A stretch of DNA of 43,972 nt. It comes from a virus (lineage: Duplodnaviria; Heunggongvirae; Uroviricota; Caudoviricetes). Of the stretch, positions 5,703-43,025 are shown piece by piece (the first letter of the stretch is position 1; each line of letters begins with the position of its first letter). Location: the IMG/VR virus record IMGVR_UViG_2681813201_000019; one strand, 5' to 3'. The notes under the pieces were generated by a model, which did no database searches, was not told the origin of the DNA, and was given only the letters and a program-made list of their open reading frames with translations. The translations under genes were made by a program, and so were the position numbers.

Positions 5703-5826
5703 ACAAAAAAACCACCCGGAGGTGGTTTCACGACACTGCTTATTGCTTTGATTTTATTCTTATCTTTCCCATGGTACCCGGAGCGGGACTTGAACCCGCA
5801 CAGCGCGAACGCCGAGGGATTTTAAA
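5703..5826. repeat. att direct repeat, left copy (3' 55 nt of leuZ plus 69 bp of downstream terminator region; not a complete tRNA)
   Basis: 124 bp identical, apart from 1 mismatch, to 42902..43025; identity ends exactly at the tRNA anticodon-loop position. Confidence 0.85.
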
Positions 5827-5932: not shown

Positions 5933-6934
5933 TTACCCTCTATTGTCAAAAGGGTTCAATTCAACAGCAGCCTCTAAATGACCTGGAGCAAAATGCGCAT
6001 AACGCATAGTCATTTTTATATCGCTATGCCCCAGTATTTTTTGCAACACAAGAATATTTCCGCCCCGCATCATAAAATGACTGGCAAACGTGTGACGTAG
6101 CACATGAGTTAATTGCCCATCAGGAAGCTCGATCTTCGCTCTCTTAATTGCAGCGTCAAAAGCCTCATAACATGGTGAAAATAGCGCTCCTCGTTTTTTG
6201 GGAAGCATAGCCTGCAATTGAGGTGAAATCGGTACAGTGCGGTTCTTCTTTCCTTTAGTTTTAACAAATGTGATTCGACCGGGCAGTACTTGAGATTGCT
6301 TTAATCCTTCTGCTTCACTCCACCGAGCACCAGTCGCAAGCCCAATACGGACAACAACCCCCAAATCTTTATTCCGTGACTCATCACACGCAATCAGAAG
6401 GCGTTCAATCTCATCTACATACAGAAACGCCAGTTCCTTTTCTTCCTCACGAAACTTGCGAATACCAGTCAGGGGGTTTTCACCAGACCACTCCCCAAGG
6501 CGCTTCAGTTCGGCAAAAACAGCATGTAGATATGACTGCTCGCGATTAACGGTTGCTTCACTAAGTTTTTTCTTCCCCTTGGGATTCCATTCTCCTGATA
6601 GCCTTCTTTCCCGATAAGTGGCAAACATATTTTTGTCAAACTGAGAAGCAAATGGATCTCCCAGCCTGGAACAAATCGCCTCAAGTTTGACTTTGCGCTC
6701 TGCACCAGAGGACAAGGTTTTACCGTACATCTCAAACCAACGAGCAATCAACTCAGAAAGACGAGGACCAGAACCATCTTGAAACTCGTCTCCAACTCTA
6801 CTATTCATTAAACGGCGCTCATAAGAGAGCGCCTCACTTTTTGTCGCAAACTGTTTACGAATGCGTTTTCCCGATGCCCCGTAGGGATAACATTCGCAAA
6901 GCCATTTACCTGATGGAATCTTACGAACCGACAT
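5933..6934 (-). CDS. int: Phage integrase (P2 Int family tyrosine recombinase)
   Basis: 333 aa; TGARWSEAEGLK, ITFVKTKGKKNRTVPIS and THVLRHTFASHFMMRGGNILVLQKILGHSDIKMTMRYAHF closely resemble P2 Int; lies about 100 bp from the att repeat. Confidence 0.9.
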   Translation of the reverse strand: MSVRKIPSGKWLCECYPYGASGKRIRKQFATKSEALSYERRLMNSRVGDEFQDGSGPRLSELIARWFEMYGKTLSSGAERKVKLEAICSRLGDPFASQFDKNMFATYRERRLSGEWNPKGKKKLSEATVNREQSYLHAVFAELKRLGEWSGENPLTGIRKFREEEKELAFLYVDEIERLLIACDESRNKDLGVVVRIGLATGARWSEAEGLKQSQVLPGRITFVKTKGKKNRTVPISPQLQAMLPKKRGALFSPCYEAFDAAIKRAKIELPDGQLTHVLRHTFASHFMMRGGNILVLQKILGHSDIKMTMRYAHFAPGHLEAAVELNPFDNRG

Positions 6935-11212: not shown

Positions 11213-11534
11213 GAAACCAGAACATGCACACACAAAAAAACCGCTTGCCATGCCTCAATCGGTCAGGTTACATTTCCGCTGCACCTCATAAAACGGGCGC
11301 CGGGATTCTCAACCCGATACAGAGCAAAGCGCATAACCGCGCAAGCGGTTTTTTTGTGCGTACTGTATTGCCACGTCTTTTTCGCGTCAGAATTATGGCG
11401 GGGCGTACGGGGCCGACTTCGGTCGGGCCGGATTCTTTGCTCTCCGGTGTTGAGAACCCTGTACGTCTCGCCACCCCGAGATTCTCAACTCTGGATGGTG
11501 AGTTATTTCTATCACCGAGCAAAGAGGCCACACC

Positions 11535-12209: not shown

Positions 12210-15032
12210 ATGACGGCAGAGTACATCAGGGACTGGCAACAACCGCGCCACGCAGTGGGGCGTGAAGGAACGGGGATCCCCGCTCCTGAATCCGCGCTTT
12301 CCTCCTGGCTGGATGCCTACCGGGTAGAGAACGAGCGCCGCCAGGAAATGGCTGATGCGGCGTTCTCCGCCACGCCGCTGGGCAACCTGATTAATAAAAG
12401 CCTGGACGCACAGGAAAAACAGGACAAAACCATCACACTGGCAGGAGACGCCAGAAAACAGGCACGCGGCGCAGTGGATGAAGCCATGACCTCGCTGCGC
12501 CTGCTGCCGTCCTATCTGCGCGATCCGCTTATTCGCCACCTCTCCTTCCTGCGCAAAAAACAGGAAGCCGATCGCCGGAAAGGCAAAAAGAGCTGGCAGG
12601 CGGAACGCTATGCACGCGGAACCCTGCGCAAAATATTCGAACGTCTGGACCGCACCGATCACCGCTGGCTGACACCGGGTTATCGCTCCCTTGCCGGACG
12701 CGAACGCCTGGACGATTTGCTTTACCTGCCGCAGCTCAACAAACACCAGATACAGACGCTGGCCACCATGACGGCGGCGATGTTCAGCAGCACCTTCGAA
12801 AAACTCTGCGATGGCTTTGGCGCGACTGATGGCGAACTGACCATGGATGTAACGCTGAAGGCGTATCAGATGCTGGCCCGCATGGCGTTACACCTGCACG
12901 CCATGCCTCCACATTATGACGCACTGACAACAGACAAAGACCGGAGGAACGAACCGGACACAGAGCTGCTGCCGGGCGCAATCCTTCGCCTGACCTGTGC
13001 GGAATGGTGGAAACGCAAACTGTGGCTGTTACGTTGCGAGTGGAGAGAAGAACAACTCCGCGCCGCCTGTCTGGTTTCCAGAAAAACATCGCCCTATCTG
13101 AGCCAGGACGCGTTAAGCGAGTTTCGCGCACAGCGCGAGAAAACACGCGATTTCCTGAAAAGTTTCATGCTGGAAAACGAAGACGGGTTCACGATTGATC
13201 TCGAGACAGTGTATTACGCGGGAGTAAGTAACCCGGTTCACCGTAAGGCAGAAATGATGGCCACCATGAAGGGACTGGAACTTCTGGCCGAAGCCCGTGG
13301 CGACAGAGCGGTGTTTCTGACTGTCACCTGCCCGTCAAAATACCACGCAACAACGGAGAACGGTCATCCGAACCCCAAATGGAACGGGGCCACCATGCGC
13401 GACTCCAGCGATTACCTGGTTAACACGTTTTTTGCGGCGGTCCGCAAAAAACTGAACCGCGACGGCCTGCGCTGGTATGGCATCCGCACGGTGGAGCCTC
13501 ACCATGACGGCACCGTGCACTGGCATATGATGGTCTTTGCTCATCCGGAAGAAATCGACAGCATCGTGGCCATCACCCGCGATATTGCCATTCAGGAAGA
13601 CCGCCACGAGCTGGGCAATGATATTACTCCGCGCTTTAAAGTGGAGTATGTCGACGGCTCAAAAGGCACACCAACCAGCTATATCGCGACCTACATCGGG
13701 AAAAACCTGGACAGCCGCGCCGTGGATGGCATCGACCCGAAAACGGGCAAACCACGCGTTGACCACGAAACCGGAAAATCAATGGCCGAGAGCGTGGAGC
13801 GCGCCATCGGTTGGGCACGCCTTCACCGGGTCCGCCAGTTCCAGTTCTTTGGCATCCCCTCCCGTCAGGTGTGGCGTGAACTCCGCCGCCTTGCCAGCCA
13901 GATGGCACGCAACCCGGAAGGCCCGCAACGGCTGAAGGATGACGCAATGGATGCGGTACTCGCTGCCGCTGATGCCGGATGTTTTGCCACCTACATAGAG
14001 AAACAGGGCGGCGTACTTGTTCCACGCAAAGACTACCTGATTCGCACCGCCTACGACCTCGCCGATGAGCTGAACGATTACGGCGAACAGAGTGTACAGA
14101 TTTACGGGATCTGGTCACCACTCATCGGGGAATCCTCCCGTGTGTGCACGCACCCGGATAACTGGAAGCTGGTAAGACGTAAACCGGAACAGGAAGGCAG
14201 CGCCCACGAAAATGGTTTTGACCTTCAGGGCGGCCCTGCCGCCCCTTGGACTCGTGGCAATAACTGTCCCCGTGTACAGGAAACGGACAACAACGGGACA
14301 GAACAGCCGGAAGAACGGCCAGCACCGTGGCCGCAGCTCCCTGACGGCGTTGAAGTGAACGAATGGATGCGCTCACTGAAACGGCACGAACGCCGGGCGC
14401 TGATGCGTTCGCTTCGTGACAAACAGGCAAAAAACAGCAGTGATGAAATGCAGAGCTGGACACAGAGCCGCAAACAGCAGCGGCCTTTGCCTGATAACCA
14501 CGAATTACTCGCTAAAGAATGGCGGGAGTCTGCTGAATCTCTCGGCCTGCATATCGGTGAACAACAGATGCAGCACCTGTTACGGGGCGGCAGTCTGTAC
14601 GTTGACGGCAGCATCATTGCACCGCAGGGGTTTGAAATTGTACGCAAACCGGATACCCGCCCGGACAGCCGAATCACGCAGCTCTGGCAGCGCCTGAGCC
14701 GTAATCACGGCGTAAGCAGCACGGAGATCCGCCATAACCCGGTCGCCAGCTATCTGGCGCAACTGGGGGCATCAGACCCTGAAGCCGCCGCACGCCTGGC
14801 ATCCACACTTCAGCAGGACCAGAACACCATGAAAACACCCGTTACCGTGCTTTCTGACATGCTGCGCGCCATCCGCGACACAGAGCACGCACAGAGAATC
14901 AGTGAAACCACTGAACGCGCCCGCCGCAAAGCAGACCTGCTGCGGGGTGGCCTGACCATTGGAAACAAAAAACAGACAGAAACGGGATTCACAAATCCCG
15001 TAAATGAGCAAAAAACGCGCCGCGATATATGA
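12210..15032 (+). CDS. A: Replication initiation endonuclease, gpA-like (rolling-circle HUH initiator)
   Basis: 940 aa; HUH motif HWHMMVF and tyrosine pair in TSYIATYIGKN typical of the P2 A / phiX174 A superfamily; expected position after the early genes. Confidence 0.85.
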   Translation: MTAEYIRDWQQPRHAVGREGTGIPAPESALSSWLDAYRVENERRQEMADAAFSATPLGNLINKSLDAQEKQDKTITLAGDARKQARGAVDEAMTSLRLLPSYLRDPLIRHLSFLRKKQEADRRKGKKSWQAERYARGTLRKIFERLDRTDHRWLTPGYRSLAGRERLDDLLYLPQLNKHQIQTLATMTAAMFSSTFEKLCDGFGATDGELTMDVTLKAYQMLARMALHLHAMPPHYDALTTDKDRRNEPDTELLPGAILRLTCAEWWKRKLWLLRCEWREEQLRAACLVSRKTSPYLSQDALSEFRAQREKTRDFLKSFMLENEDGFTIDLETVYYAGVSNPVHRKAEMMATMKGLELLAEARGDRAVFLTVTCPSKYHATTENGHPNPKWNGATMRDSSDYLVNTFFAAVRKKLNRDGLRWYGIRTVEPHHDGTVHWHMMVFAHPEEIDSIVAITRDIAIQEDRHELGNDITPRFKVEYVDGSKGTPTSYIATYIGKNLDSRAVDGIDPKTGKPRVDHETGKSMAESVERAIGWARLHRVRQFQFFGIPSRQVWRELRRLASQMARNPEGPQRLKDDAMDAVLAAADAGCFATYIEKQGGVLVPRKDYLIRTAYDLADELNDYGEQSVQIYGIWSPLIGESSRVCTHPDNWKLVRRKPEQEGSAHENGFDLQGGPAAPWTRGNNCPRVQETDNNGTEQPEERPAPWPQLPDGVEVNEWMRSLKRHERRALMRSLRDKQAKNSSDEMQSWTQSRKQQRPLPDNHELLAKEWRESAESLGLHIGEQQMQHLLRGGSLYVDGSIIAPQGFEIVRKPDTRPDSRITQLWQRLSRNHGVSSTEIRHNPVASYLAQLGASDPEAAARLASTLQQDQNTMKTPVTVLSDMLRAIRDTEHAQRISETTERARRKADLLRGGLTIGNKKQTETGFTNPVNEQKTRRDI

Positions 15033-29823: not shown

Positions 29824-31974
29824 ATGAGTACCACAACACGAAAATTTAAAACCATTATCACTGATACTGGTGCCAAAAAATTAGCTCAGGCAGCCGCGCC
29901 AGGTGGTAATCCTGTCCGCCTGACTCACATGGCCGTGGGCGACGGTGGCGGCACGTTGCCCACACCAGACAGTAAGCAGACCCGTCTGGTGCATGAGGTG
30001 TGGCGACATACTGTTAATCGCGTCATCCTGGACGCAACACATCAGAACCGCATTATTGCGGAGCTGGTTATTCCTCCTGAAACGGGCGGATTCTGGATCC
30101 GGGAAATTGGTGTATTTGATGAGCACGGCGATTTGATCGCGGTGGGCAATACTGCCGAAAGTTACAAGCCAGCCGTTGCCAAAGGATCCGGACGTGCACA
30201 AACATTTCGCACCATTCTGACCGTATCCAGCACTGCCACCGTGGCGCTTACCGTGGATAACACCATGGTTATGGCCACAGTGGATTACGTGAATGACAAA
30301 CTGAAAGAACATGAACAGTCACGACGTCACCCGGACGCCTCGCTGACCGCAAAAGGCTTTGTTCAACTCAGTAGCGCCACCAACAGCACGTCTGAAGCAC
30401 TGGCCGCAACGCCGAAAGCGGTCAAGGCAGCCTATGACCTTGCTAACGGGAAATATACCGCACAGGACGCCACTACAGCGCGAAAAGGTCTTGTCCAGCT
30501 CAGTAGTGCCACCAACAGCACGTCTGAAACGCTCGCCGCAACACCAAAAGCGGTAAAGGCCGCGTATGATCTTGCTAACGCAAAATATACCGCTCAGGAC
30601 GCCACGACGGCACAAAAAGGGATTGTCCAGCTCAGTAGTGCCACCAACAGCACGTCTGAAACACTGGCCGCGACATCGAAAGCGGTTAAGGCAGTAATGG
30701 ATGAAACAAATAAGAAAGCCCCATTAAACAGCCCGGCGCTGACCGGAACGCCAACAACACCAACTGCGCGACAGGGAACGAATAATACCCAAATCGCAAG
30801 CACGGCTTTCGTTATGGCTGCGATTGCCGCCCTTGTAGATTCGTCACCTGATGCACTGAACACGCTGAACGAGCTGGCTGCGGCGCTGGGCAACGACCCG
30901 AATTTTGCGACCACCATGACTAACGCGCTTGCGGGTAAGCAACCGAAAGATGCCACCCTGACGGCGCTGGCCGGGCTTGCTACTGCGGCAGACAGGTTTC
31001 CGTATTTTACGGGGAATGATGTCGCCAGCCTGGCAACTCTGACAAAAGTCGGGCGGGATATTCTTGCGAAATCGACCGTTGCCGCCGTTATCGAATACCT
31101 CGGTTTACAGGAAACGGTAAACAGGGCTGGTAACGCCGTGCAAAAAAATGGCGATACCTTGTCCGGTGGGCTTACTTTTGAAAATGACTCAATCCTTGCC
31201 TGGATTCGAAATACTGACTGGGCGAAGATTGGATTTAAAAATGATGCCGATGGTGACACTGATTCATACATGTGGTTTGAAACAGGCGACAACGGCAATG
31301 AATATTTCAAATGGAGAAGCCGCCAGAGCACCACAACAAAAGACCTGATGACGCTGAAATGGGATGCACTAAATATTCTTGTTAATGCTGTCATTAATGG
31401 CAGTCTTGGAGTTGGTTCGACGAATGCGTTAGGTGGTAGCTCTATTGTTCTTGGTGATAATGACACCGGATTTAAACAGAATGGAGACGGTATTCTGGAT
31501 GTTTATGCTAATAGTCAGCGTGTATTCCGCTTTCAGAATGGAGTGGCTATTGCTTTTAAAAATATTCAGGCCGGGGATGGTAAAAAATTCACGCTATCCA
31601 GCTCCAACAACTCCACAAAGAATGCAATGTTTAATTTATGGGGTGCTTCAACCCGTCCAGTAGTTGCAGAGTTAGGCGATGAGGCAGGATGGCATTTCTA
31701 TAGCCAGCGAAATACAGATAACTCGGTAATATTTTCTGTTAACGGTCAGATACAGCCCAGCAACTGGGGGAATTTTGATTCACGCTATGTAAAAGATGTT
31801 CGCCTGGGTACGCGTGTTGTTCAATTGATGGCGCGTGGTGGTCGTTATGAAAAAGCCGGACACGCAATTACCGGATTAAGAATCATTGGTGAAGTAGATG
31901 GCGATGATGAAGCCATCTTCAGACCAATACAAAAATACATCAATGGCACATGGTATAACGTCGCACAGGTGTAA
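29824..31974 (+). CDS. H: Tail fibre protein (gpH): constant N-terminal part plus invertible C-terminal part
   Basis: 716 aa; N-terminus MSTTTRKFKTIITDTGAKKLA...MAVGDGGG...HEVWRH parallels P2 gpH; three tandem copies of a roughly 44-aa repeat (KGxVQLSSATNSTSExLAAT(P/S)KAVKA...) at aa 177-295. Confidence 0.85.
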   Translation: MSTTTRKFKTIITDTGAKKLAQAAAPGGNPVRLTHMAVGDGGGTLPTPDSKQTRLVHEVWRHTVNRVILDATHQNRIIAELVIPPETGGFWIREIGVFDEHGDLIAVGNTAESYKPAVAKGSGRAQTFRTILTVSSTATVALTVDNTMVMATVDYVNDKLKEHEQSRRHPDASLTAKGFVQLSSATNSTSEALAATPKAVKAAYDLANGKYTAQDATTARKGLVQLSSATNSTSETLAATPKAVKAAYDLANAKYTAQDATTAQKGIVQLSSATNSTSETLAATSKAVKAVMDETNKKAPLNSPALTGTPTTPTARQGTNNTQIASTAFVMAAIAALVDSSPDALNTLNELAAALGNDPNFATTMTNALAGKQPKDATLTALAGLATAADRFPYFTGNDVASLATLTKVGRDILAKSTVAAVIEYLGLQETVNRAGNAVQKNGDTLSGGLTFENDSILAWIRNTDWAKIGFKNDADGDTDSYMWFETGDNGNEYFKWRSRQSTTTKDLMTLKWDALNILVNAVINGSLGVGSTNALGGSSIVLGDNDTGFKQNGDGILDVYANSQRVFRFQNGVAIAFKNIQAGDGKKFTLSSSNNSTKNAMFNLWGASTRPVVAELGDEAGWHFYSQRNTDNSVIFSVNGQIQPSNWGNFDSRYVKDVRLGTRVVQLMARGGRYEKAGHAITGLRIIGEVDGDDEAIFRPIQKYINGTWYNVAQV
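31088..31113. other. gix/hix-like recombination site (left boundary of the invertible segment), inside gpH at codons 422-430
   Basis: TTATCGAATACCTCGGTTTACAGGAA; inverted partner at 33766..33791; the core ACCTCGGTTTAC resembles the Mu gix site (TTCCTGTAAACCGAGGTTTTGGATAA, as recalled). Confidence 0.6.
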
Positions 31975-40216: not shown

Positions 40217-41326
40217 ATGACCGACACCACCATGCAATTGCTCAGCCAGGGCACAGACCCCGTAAAAATGCCGGATTTTGATATTCTCGCGGAGGGTAAA
40301 ACGCTGTCCGGCGTGGCAGAGCGCCTGATGAGCCTGTCGCTGACCGACAACCGGGGATTTGAGGCAGACCAGCTCACCATCACGCTGGATGATGCGGATG
40401 GTCAGTTGCAGCTACCGCCACGGGGCGCGCGCCTGACGGTTCTCATTGGCTGGAAAGGCGAACCGCTGACAGAAAAAGGGTCTTACATTGTTGATGAAAT
40501 CGCACACGAAGGACCGCCGGACAGGCTGACTGTTTCAGCCAGAAGCGCAGATTTCCGGGATGAATTTAACGTTAAACGTGAGGTGTCCTGGCATGATGTG
40601 ACCGTTGAGCGTGTGGTATCCGCCATCGCTCATCGGTACGGTCTGAAACCGCAAATCAGCGAAATGCTGATGGATATCGAAATCGACCACGCCGACCAGA
40701 CCGAAGAAAGTGACATGTCCTTCCTTACGCGCATGGCGGAAATGCTGGGCGCAATCACTACGGTAAAAAGCGGTAATCTGTTATTCATCATGCCCGGTGG
40801 TGGCGTGAACGCACAGGGCCAGCCGTTGCCATCGTTCGCCATCACGCGCAGCAGCGGCGATCGCCATCAGTTCCGCATTGCTGACCGCGAGGCGTATACG
40901 GGGGTACGCGCCTACTGGCTTGATCTTAATTACGGGAAAAAGAAAAAAGTCAGCGTGAAACGCCGCAAACCGCCAAAACCGAAAAAAGAGAAAAGCAGCA
41001 GCCGTGAAGGTGATTATATGGAAGGCGCGGAAGGCAATGTGTTTGTGTTACGCAAGACTTATCAGAACGAGCAGGCAGCAAGACGCGCAGCGGCGGCAAA
41101 GTGGCAACAACTACAACGCGGAGCCGCATCATTCTCCATCACGCTGGCACGTGGACGAGCAGAACTCTACCCCGAAATGCATGGCACGGTAACAGGATTT
41201 AAAAGCGAGATTGATAATCAGGACTGGATTATTGCAAAAGCCGAGCACACCATTGATAACAGCGGCTTTACCACGCAGCTTGAGCTTGAGGCAAAAATCC
41301 CGGAATGGATAGCGGAAACAGAGTGA
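40217..41326 (+). CDS. D: Tail protein D (gpD); start at internal ATG (MTDTTMQLL...)
   Basis: About 370 aa, P2 gpD-like, upstream of ogr; the ORF-track start at 40085 lies inside the divergent promoter region. Confidence 0.8.
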   Translation: MTDTTMQLLSQGTDPVKMPDFDILAEGKTLSGVAERLMSLSLTDNRGFEADQLTITLDDADGQLQLPPRGARLTVLIGWKGEPLTEKGSYIVDEIAHEGPPDRLTVSARSADFRDEFNVKREVSWHDVTVERVVSAIAHRYGLKPQISEMLMDIEIDHADQTEESDMSFLTRMAEMLGAITTVKSGNLLFIMPGGGVNAQGQPLPSFAITRSSGDRHQFRIADREAYTGVRAYWLDLNYGKKKKVSVKRRKPPKPKKEKSSSREGDYMEGAEGNVFVLRKTYQNEQAARRAAAAKWQQLQRGAASFSITLARGRAELYPEMHGTVTGFKSEIDNQDWIIAKAEHTIDNSGFTTQLELEAKIPEWIAETE

Positions 41327-41368
41327 GCAACTTAGAATAGCGGCAGCACCACGTTAAAGGAGGTCGCT

Positions 41369-41629
41369 ATGTTCCGTTGTCCGCTTTGTGGCGCATCTGC
41401 CCGTATCCGCACCAGTCGTCCGGAAAATGATTCAAACACCGTGCGGCAAAAGTATTACCAGTGTAACAACCTGGAATGCGGCGTATGCTTCTCAACACTG
41501 GAAGCTTTCCATAAATTCACATCGAAACACGCCTCCGGCGTTCACTCATCAGAAGGTATCCCGTGGCATGAGCTGCCAGCTTCACACAGGGGAAACAATC
41601 AGATGAGTTTGCCTTTACCTCAGAATTAA
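41369..41629 (+). CDS. ogr: Ogr/Delta-family zinc-finger late transcription activator
   Basis: MFRCPLCGASARIRTSR...YYQCNNLECGVCF parallels P2 Ogr (MFHCPLCQHAAHARTSR...YHQCQNVNCSATF). Confidence 0.85.
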   Translation: MFRCPLCGASARIRTSRPENDSNTVRQKYYQCNNLECGVCFSTLEAFHKFTSKHASGVHSSEGIPWHELPASHRGNNQMSLPLPQN

Positions 41630-41818
41630 CAGGCAGAATTGCCGGAGTAACAAAAAAGCGATAGATTACGTGCGGGTGCCTTTCGGCTGATGGTCGGAGG
41701 GAATACCCGAAGGCCGGATGTGGAAAGGCCCCGGAAAACATTTCTGTTTAACCGAGGCCCTAACCCGTCAACCTAGCAAGTGATAGGTTAGCGCCTCTCC
41801 AACAAAGGAGCAAGCGCT

Positions 41819-41959
41819 ATGTCGCAAAAATCGCTTACGGCCATCACGTTCTGCGTGACGGTAATCCTCATCATCTGGATGCTGCACGGTTCGCTGTGTG
41901 AAATACGGATGAGCTTCTGGGGAGCGGAGTTTGCGGCGTTCTTACAGTGTAAGCAGTAA
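41819..41959 (+). CDS. Hok/Gef-family type I toxin (46 aa)
   Basis: MSQKSLTAITFCVTVILIIWMLHGSLCEIRMSFWGAEFAAFLQCKQ has one transmembrane helix and the SLCEIR...AAF signature of Hok; a long structured leader lies upstream and a terminator downstream. Confidence 0.7.
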   Translation: MSQKSLTAITFCVTVILIIWMLHGSLCEIRMSFWGAEFAAFLQCKQ

Positions 41960-42046
41960 GGAAACCGCGACGGGGAGGCAACTCCCCGTCAATCGGTTGC
42001 CAGGGTAAGGCCGATAAGGCACCCTATCTCATAGGCATGAATAACA

Positions 42047-42080
42047 ACCCCGCAGCGTAAAAACTGCGGGGTTTCTTTTT
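42047..42080 (+). terminator. Rho-independent terminator of the hok-like transcript
   Basis: ccccgcagcgtaaaaactgcgggg followed by tttcttttt. Confidence 0.5.
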
Positions 42081-42148
42081 GGAACTCTCACTAGCTAGTG
42101 AGCCGTTAACTGCACATAATGCTCGCACAACAAATCAGTTAAAAGAGA

Positions 42149-42544
42149 TTACTCAGCATTCTCCTGCTTCCATTGCCGGATCATTTCATCGGTAACATCA
42201 CTTTCATAACATACCACGTCATACCCTCCAGTACGGCTATATGCACTGCGTCCACCACATCTACTACCATTCCTTGCATGATTATACGGACACGCACAAT
42301 TGCCTGGATAAGATTCAATGGATTCTTTAATTATTTCTTTCTTGATCTGAGCATCTGACTTTCCTGTTGCTGCATACCCACTAAAAGATACCAAACAAAG
42401 GCAGATTGCCATTAATAAACCACATCGCATACCGATACACTCTATTACTAACCAATCATAGCCCACATCATAAAATCGAGATGAGGAGTACAACACCTTT
42501 AACAAGAAGGTGCCATCACGATAATATGCCGTGCAATTCATCAA
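42149..42544 (-). CDS. Hypothetical Cys-rich secreted protein (start possibly at an internal Met)
   Basis: Signal-peptide-like MRCGLLMAICLCLVSFSGYAA and a Cys-rich region PGNCACPYNHARNGSRCGG; prophage cargo between ogr and attR. Confidence 0.4.
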   Translation of the reverse strand: MMNCTAYYRDGTFLLKVLYSSSRFYDVGYDWLVIECIGMRCGLLMAICLCLVSFSGYAATGKSDAQIKKEIIKESIESYPGNCACPYNHARNGSRCGGRSAYSRTGGYDVVCYESDVTDEMIRQWKQENAE

Positions 42545-42901
42545 AAAAAAGATCTATATCAAAGAGATAGAGTTATTATCAGTGCTGCAGACATCAGCAT
42601 TCGAGGCAGCAGAAAGACAGTAAATCTAACGAATTTGTCTTTTTCTCAAGATGTTGTCAGATTAAAAAAGATAGAGTAGCGCAGACACCTTTTGGTGGAT
42701 GGTAGGAGGAAAAATGAAGTTGAGTGGGAAGATCCCAGAAAAAACTTTGGTTTAACCAAGGCCCTAGTTCAATATGCGAAATGCAGATGAGTTGCAGGAG
42801 AGTTTTGCTTCACCCTTAGAGTTTAAACAGACGTGTACTATCATTATTTCTGCATATCGCCACACCATCGCCACTTTACCGCCATTTAACAAAATACAAA
42901 T

Positions 42902-43025
42902 ACAAAAAAACCACCCGAAGGTGGTTTCACGACACTGCTTATTGCTTTGATTTTATTCTTATCTTTCCCATGGTACCCGGAGCGGGACTTGAACCCGCAC
43001 AGCGCGAACGCCGAGGGATTTTAAA
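42902..43025. repeat. att direct repeat, right copy (overlaps the functional leuZ 3' half and its terminator)
   Basis: Identical to 5703..5826 except for one base in the terminator loop. Confidence 0.85.

Follow-up and report, generated by a model that had tools for sequence, protein, structure and literature searches.

A probable hok/sok-type toxin-antitoxin module behind ogr in a P88-like prophage of Escherichia coli

Does the spacer behind the late-gene activator of a P2-like prophage carry a type I toxin-antitoxin module, or a short open reading frame (ORF) that only looks like one? The question is raised by a stretch of 43,972 nucleotides (IMG/VR record IMGVR_UViG_2681813201_000019; this whole stretch is called the window below), for which a sequence-only reading had proposed a Hok-like type I toxin locus, carried as cargo, at positions 41630-42080. 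These coordinates frame the module described here (41639-42080, plus strand) almost exactly. I consider it probable, at roughly 0.85, that the locus is a hok/sok-type type I toxin-antitoxin (TA) module of Hok cluster 72, closest to HokA, which is carried as a moron by a P88-like prophage of the P2 family. The peptide, the leader, the predicted pairing of tac and fbi and the Sok-like elements all point to this core reading, as far as sequence can tell.

The genomic setting is straightforward. The part of the window from 41300 to 42960 is 100% identical to the chromosomes of O145:H28 and related STEC, and the host DNA is that of E. coli. The prophage is P88-like (Xuanwuvirus, Peduoviridae; P2 family) and is located in the 3' end of the tRNA-Leu gene leuZ, with the following landmarks:

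5703-5826: attL, a 124-nt direct repeat with its copy at 42902-43025
5933-6934, minus strand: tyrosine integrase gene, adjoining attL
12210-15032: gene A (replication)
ending at 41326: gpD, at the right-hand prophage end before ogr
41369-41629, plus strand: ogr, the late-gene activator (Pfam Ogr_Delta, 52.4 bits), with its stop at 41629
42902-43025: attR, the 124-nt direct repeat of 5703-5826, overlapping the 3' part of leuZ

The module starts 10 nt 3' of the ogr stop (41639 vs 41629), and no terminator-like site is found on the plus strand between 41560 and 41968, hence none between ogr and hok. To the right of the module follow, in order, a 93-aa ORF on the opposite strand, attR with leuZ, cysT, glyW and pgsA. 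The proposed position at an ogr-attR junction is therefore correct on one side only: the module abuts ogr, but attR lies some 820 bp further right, and the interval holds the 93-aa ORF, apparently secreted, and the fossil of a second hok leader.

The 93-aa ORF (42149-42430, minus strand) has a signal-like segment at its N-terminus and several cysteines (...GNCACPYNHARNGSRCGGRSAY...), is annotated as hypothetical, matches phrog_27544 (unknown function) and has neither a Pfam nor a PADLOC match; it travels with the hok fossil beside leuZ. Elsewhere in the prophage, adjacent Rfam matches to isrK (58.4 bits) and C4 antisense RNA (78.5 bits), both above the gathering score, are located at 11281-11478 (plus strand) in the early region, just upstream of the replication gene A, and this pair suggests RNA-based immunity or antirepressor control of the P1/P7 or Gifsy type in this P2-like phage. 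A tandem repeat at 30351-30694 (plus strand; unit of 132 nt or 44 codons, 2.6 copies, 85% match) is probably situated inside a tail-fibre gene.

The toxin candidate itself is short:

41819-41959, plus strand: hok-family toxin ORF of 46 aa, MSQKSLTAITFCVTVILIIWMLHGSLCEIRMSFWGAEFAAFLQCKQ

This ORF scores above the curated cut-off of the Pfam family PF01848 HOK_GEF (30.1 bits, cut-off 22, E 3.7e-7) and matches PHROG 251 with an E-value of 2.5e-23, which bears out the Hok signature that the sequence-only reading had seen in it. Its identity is 43% with HokA of K-12 and 39% with Hok of plasmid R1, while the HokA equivalog model NCBIfam NF007290 failed by a wide distance (35.8 bits vs a cut-off of 89), so that, judged from its sequence, the peptide is a relative of HokA but not HokA. 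In the cluster alignment C12, T14, C27 and E28 are invariant, and these residues correspond to C16, T18, C31 and E32 of the published logo; RefSeq lists the protein as WP_000078920.1, 'Hok/Gef family protein'. All 47 distinct sequences keep the 46-codon frame open, even those that encode proteins of only 48-76% identity, and the variable columns are distributed over the three codon positions as 28/21/36, the third position varying most. The hok Shine-Dalgarno sequence (SD), AGGAG at 41806-41810, is kept in the relatives together with its spacing of 8 nt. In a recent preprint 42 of 45 Hok homologs were toxic on induction, among them 72_1621 and 72_1589 (bioRxiv 10.1101/2025.08.07.668861). The first of these differs from the peptide of the window by a single residue (V15A), and the second is the lambdoid variant.

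Upstream and downstream of this ORF the elements of a hok transcription unit can be placed:

41639-41667, plus strand: putative hok promoter, -35 TTGCCG (41639-41644), 17-nt spacer, -10 TAGATT (41662-41667)
41674-42080, plus strand: predicted full-length hok mRNA of ~407 nt, its 5' end taken from position 1 of RF01794
42046-42080, plus strand: intrinsic terminator, stem 42046-42073 and T run to 42080; the stem is bidirectional, with the T run on the plus side

The leader is 145 nt long (41674-41818) and starts near G41674. In a permissive Rfam scan 41674-41829 aligns to all 157 positions of RF01794 with 47.3 bits and an E-value of 4.9e-9, a score that stays under the gathering score of 59, so that a default Rfam scan shows no hok/sok match. 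The Rfam search that had been suggested as a check thus gave a full-length match at a score below the curated limit. As a control, an R1-type hok/sok locus reached 87.2 bits on its hok strand, and all tested relatives of the cluster (about six) scored between 31 and 51. RF01794, although named 'sok antitoxin', in fact models the hok-sense leader. A profile built from the family leaders and run over the whole window gave two matches and no others, one to this locus (E 2e-50), one to the fossil (E 7e-8). From these alignments the homology to the hok mRNA leader is clear, and the long leader with hok-like elements as well as the 3' terminator, both claimed earlier, can be located.

The pattern of the putative promoter, TTGNNN/17 nt/TA(G/C/A)A(T/G)T, is conserved in relatives with unrelated upstream flanks. 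A consensus promoter scan did not list it (8 of 12 consensus positions, below the threshold), nor did it list the Sok-like promoter described below; both are accordingly placed by homology and conservation. The terminators differ in other genomic contexts, so the one at 42046-42080 does not belong to the conserved module.

In order to describe the predicted folding of the mRNA, the following elements are needed:

41674-41688, plus strand: tac-like 5' element, GGGUGCCUUUCGGCU, pairing with 42009-42024 in both the minimum free energy (MFE) and the centroid fold
41723-41732, plus strand: ucb-like box, GAAAGGCCCC, pairing with tac in the fold of the truncated mRNA
41789-41819, plus strand: SD-sequestering hairpin (helix 8), covering AGGAG at 41806-41810 as well as the initial base of the AUG
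41969-41990, plus strand: 3'-UTR hairpin (helix 16), GACGGGGAG-GCAA-CUCCCCGUC
42009-42024, plus strand: fbi-like 3' element, GGCCGA-U-AAGGCACCC, forming a 15-bp helix with tac

The 407-nt mRNA folds with an MFE of -178.4 kcal/mol (z = -7.84 vs shuffled sequences). Conservation of the fold was assessed in an alignment of 48 distinct relatives from E. coli genomes, phages and IMG/VR; since a scan of genome contigs retrieved only 6 loci, 3 of them in contaminated-looking assemblies, this alignment leans on closely related E. coli and IMG/VR sequences, and its power to detect covariation is limited. The helix between tac and fbi is 94.6% paired among these relatives, vs 39-44% when the partners are slid against each other, and of its 15 pairs 7 vary on one side in a wobble-compatible manner (GC to GU) and 2 on both sides. 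Closure of the 5' end upon the 3' end is thus predicted by the folding and shown to be maintained in evolution, and module conservation stops about 6 nt past fbi. Helix 16 is 99.8% paired, with compensatory two-sided changes at 4 of its 9 pairs.

When the 3' end is removed from the model, tac re-pairs with 41723-41732 in the MFE and centroid folds, and GAGGC (41754-41758) pairs with GCCUC (41793-41797) in the MFE fold only. This predicted refolding parallels the switch that follows 3' shortening in R1, where tac/ucb and SD-mok/dcb pairings are formed (PMC9841398). The helix of tac and ucb (98% paired) and that of GAGGC and GCCUC are invariant, and neither gives a covariation signal. Helix 8, which would sequester the hok SD, is 96.8% paired across the 48 sequences, with one-sided variation alone at 6 of its 11 pairs. 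In the ensembles of 14 family members the SD is about 75% paired in the full-length, the truncated and the Sok-masked state alike. A gating of the SD by refolding alone, in which truncation would free it by way of GAGGC/GCCUC and Sok would close it again, is therefore not supported, as its pairing is about equal in all states.

The three doubtful assemblies of the genome-contig search deserve a remark of their own. Two of the loci (L012, L013) are 100% identical to the hok locus of the window and the third (L016) is 74% identical, and the assemblies are labelled as the Planococcaceae MAG UBA3378, Vagococcus sp. WN89Y (on a contig of 226 kb) and Xanthomonas pisi (on one of 857 nt), which are most likely cases of enterobacterial contamination or mislabelling. 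Among 80 IMG/VR contigs retrieved, about 20 (L022, L027, L030 and others) end exactly at the hok stop codon; this is probably the result of provirus trimming at the last called gene and not a biological end.

The sequence-only reading had expected an antisense Sok-like RNA opposite the leader, which it had left unmapped. Such a gene can be placed by homology:

41785-41813, minus strand: Sok-like promoter, -35 TTGCTC (41813-41808), 17-nt spacer, -10 TAACCT (41790-41785)
41722-41778, minus strand: predicted Sok-like antisense RNA of ~55 nt, homologous in position to R1 Sok according to the Rfam alignment
41760-41779, either strand: hypervariable patch, the part of the leader with which Sok's 5' tail would pair

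The putative promoter aligns with TTGCGC/17/TATCCT of the R1-type locus. In the relatives the -10 hexamer is identical in 47 of 47 sequences, the -35 hexamer in 44 and the 17-nt spacer again in all 47, even though the match to the consensus is weak (6 of 12). As this promoter overlaps the hok SD, its conservation could have several causes. In the predicted RNA an unpaired 5' tail precedes a hairpin (41759-41727) and UUUCC; the folding energy is -23.6 kcal/mol (z = -2.67; -17 to -28 kcal/mol within the family), and promoter and hairpin vary little or not at all in 47 relatives.

The patch shows a different pattern. It occurs in 17 variants of 20-22 nt among 47 sequences and is the most variable transcribed segment, with a mean pairwise identity of 0.76 vs 0.89-0.96 for the adjacent leader segments. 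Such variability matches what would be expected, from sequence comparison, of a specificity determinant between co-resident hok/sok pairs.

The lack of a mok frame hinders a straightforward transfer of the R1 model. In R1 the translation of mok up to the hok SD is mandatory, and toxicity is lost when mok carries premature stops upstream of hok (PMC9841398). At the homologous site of the window GAGG is kept (41754-41757), and it is followed by neither ATG, GTG nor TTG. Two other ORFs are present in the leader:

41690-41776, plus strand: leader ORF 1, 28 codons, with its stop 43 nt before the hok AUG
41718-41783, plus strand: leader ORF 2, 21 codons, with its stop 36 nt before the hok AUG

The ORFs that open at the conserved leader ATGs range from 1 to 87 codons among 46 relatives and use all three frames, so that neither frame nor length is conserved; a frame of 61-87 codons that overlaps hok is found in only 13 of the 46. 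One of the sequences with such an overlapping frame, L028, is 98% identical to the window and differs from it by an indel in the patch. Any N-terminal extension of Hok is closed off by a TAG that lies in frame and never varies (41789-41791, in GGTTAG). Three candidates for mok were tried and rejected. The ATG at 41718, which follows a GAAGG, occurs in 46 of 46 relatives, but its ORF varies from 1 to 79 codons over three frames; that at 41690 opens an ORF equally inconstant in length and frame; and a GTG mini-ORF at 41780-41791, present in 43 of 47 relatives, has no SD.

Judged from these sequences the whole 46-aa Hok cluster appears to be devoid of mok, and this is the sole point of modest interest in the locus. 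I put forward, tentatively and with more doubt than conviction, that the cluster forms a natural branch of mok-less hok/sok loci, in which Hok is released without a leader peptide reaching the SD and the patch serves as a coexistence code. Possible routes for such a release are a short frame-independent upstream ORF, termination-reinitiation at GUGA (41780-41783) or kinetic folding.

The locus is widespread. A blastn search found it in 1751 of 5426 complete E. coli genomes, where it is always annotated as 'Hok/Gef family protein', with related places numbering up to nine per E. coli genome, and the exact 46-aa protein is present on more than 1000 contigs. What is conserved is the unit from the -35 hexamer to about 6 nt past fbi, whereas flanks and terminators vary with the context. 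This unit is located 3' of ogr in P2-like prophages at leuZ, beside serS and at other sites; lambdoid prophages, Stx2a phages among them, have it adjacent to lom or in the interval from J to the tail-fibre gene; and in O157:H7 it adjoins a type-B L31 gene. The occurrence of the promoter-to-fbi module in at least four unrelated contexts agrees with its description as prophage cargo.

A remnant of a second copy is present within the window itself:

42688-42768, plus strand: fossil second hok leader, corresponding to the 5' 85 nt only and without a toxin ORF; the wider similarity covers 42664-42775

The fossil shares about 70% identity with the intact leader over the latter's first 85-110 nt (nhmmer E 6.9e-8, profile positions 7-92), and the stretch upstream of the fossil resembles the hok promoter region, with decayed hexamers. 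I considered whether it could be an orphan Sok or decoy RNA; there is no stable fold on either strand, and together with the decayed hexamers this leaves it a fossil. The segment 42600-42901 beside leuZ, unannotated, is present in 643 of 5426 E. coli genomes including O157:H7 EDL933, in which an IS30 element lies upstream of the segment.

Compared with hok/mok/sok of plasmid R1 (parB), the locus shares the SLCEIR core and, as predicted from its sequence, an mRNA of about 400 nt, closure by tac and fbi, and a cis-antisense gene that has a terminal hairpin and a promoter covering the region of the hok SD; an upstream re-pairing of tac after 3' shortening, as in R1, appears in the folding models. 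It differs in its protein (46 aa vs 52, with the 39% identity extending over 31 residues), in the lack of mok, in its location in a prophage and not on a plasmid, and in its RF01794 score (47 vs 87 bits). The chromosomal hokA/mokA/sokA locus has the nearest named protein, the best NCBIfam match and the same C-terminal ...AAFL.CK motif; in the annotation of K-12, however, mokA extends hokA in frame at its N-terminus, which the TAG at 41789-41791 forbids here. The hokW-sokW locus of the Stx2 prophages Sp5 and 933W is likewise a prophage-borne hok/sok, and PHROG 251 ('MokW-like host killing') covers both. It is the only hok/sok of a prophage to have been studied by experiment, and in Sp5 it is a proven type I TA system with toxin and antisense antitoxin (PMC8621323). 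HokW is nevertheless a peptide of 51 aa (MKQQKAM..., HokC/D-like) from another Hok cluster, and the 46-aa relative found in Stx phages (83% nucleotide identity) is a separate locus beside lom, not hokW.

The gene as such is not new. Gp52 of phage P88 is the same gene, with an identical protein in P88 and in O145:H28 genomes, and so is Hok 'cluster 72' of Escalera-Maurer et al. 2026, who catalogued 44,248 Hok homologs, enriched in prophages (bioRxiv 10.1101/2025.08.07.668861). The locus is thus already known from RefSeq, from P88 gp52 and from cluster 72, which has been catalogued and, at the level of the peptide, examined for toxicity. That catalogue covers coding sequences only and deliberately leaves Mok, Sok and the mRNA structure unannotated (bioRxiv 10.1101/2025.08.07.668861); the element map and the absence of mok are what is added here. 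A search of the literature for hok in P2-like or P88 phages returned nothing specific.

How the module would act can be proposed by homology with R1, from which the transcription of both RNAs, the 3' processing, the cleavage by RNase III and the trigger are inferred. A weak constitutive promoter would give rise to the stable ~407-nt mRNA, which would be locked by the 15-bp pairing of tac (41674-41688) with fbi (42009-42024). Slow trimming of the 3' end would remove fbi, upon which the 5' end would re-pair with 41723-41732 and the leader would refold. A short and unstable Sok of the minus strand (~41778 to 41722), made from TTGCTC/17/TAACCT, would pair with the refolded leader, beginning at the hypervariable patch, and the resulting duplex would be degraded, presumably by RNase III. 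The 46-aa inner-membrane peptide Hok would be made only when the supply of Sok fails, which could happen upon loss of the prophage, when an infecting phage shuts down host transcription, or when ogr read-through collides with sok on induction. The module should then be lethal to, or arrest, cells that no longer make Sok but still contain the stable hok mRNA. Stabilisation of the prophage, exclusion of other phages and help with lysis on induction are all plausible roles.

Could the resemblance be fortuitous, with an ORF and hok-like elements arising by chance in an intergenic spacer? The ORF is short and the Rfam match stays under its gathering score, and these are the only observations that favour this explanation. 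The Pfam score above the curated cut-off, the PHROG match, the exact protein on more than 1000 contigs and the z-score of the fold all speak against it, and as the leader profile finds only the hok locus and the fossil in the window, I regard chance as refuted, with a negligible probability. More serious is the suggestion that the copy is silent, its elements folding while its native transcript never yields the toxin, so that it persists by hitch-hiking or through a role of the RNA only. In the window copy and in 33 of 46 relatives no ORF extends from the leader to the hok SD, which itself is predicted to be paired in all modelled states, and the effect of premature mok stops in R1 would fit such silence. 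In addition, the chromosomal hok loci of K-12 and ECOR strains are reported as unable to mediate killing (cited in bioRxiv 10.1101/2025.08.07.668861). A silent copy would not, however, be expected to keep its 46-codon frame intact in all distinct sequences, its SD and 8-nt spacing, and an excess of variation at third codon positions, nor its promoter-to-fbi module in four unrelated contexts and about a third of the genomes searched. I consider silence rather improbable, and a hok/sok-type module remains the preferred reading.

Alternatively, the same hok/sok-type module may serve mainly to speed up lysis and phage release on induction, instead of post-segregational killing or abortive infection. 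Read-through from ogr would collide with sok and titrate it, and Hok would depolarise the membrane and advance the triggering of the holin. As hok follows the ogr stop after 10 nt without an intervening terminator, read-through would run head-on into sok and its promoter, which fits such a role. There is also a precedent in hokW-sokW of Sp5, where mitomycin C lowers sokW and raises HokW, lysis and phage release after mitomycin C are accelerated by the locus, and its deletion halves the phage yield (PMC8621323). However, HokW comes from another type of phage and is a member of another Hok cluster, and the module is also located where no late gene lies upstream, for instance beside the L31 paralogue. 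As the main role I hold this to be possible yet doubtful, if less so than silence.

For annotation these observations imply that the label 'MokW-like' misleads when it is given to a Hok peptide and that HokA is the wrong name for it, and that the gathering score of 59 of RF01794 misses the whole 46-aa Hok cluster (tested on L003-L017), which is present in about one third of E. coli genomes. For the family as such, the route by which an mRNA with a sequestered SD and without mok is translated into Hok would show whether the coupling to mok is dispensable in part of it.
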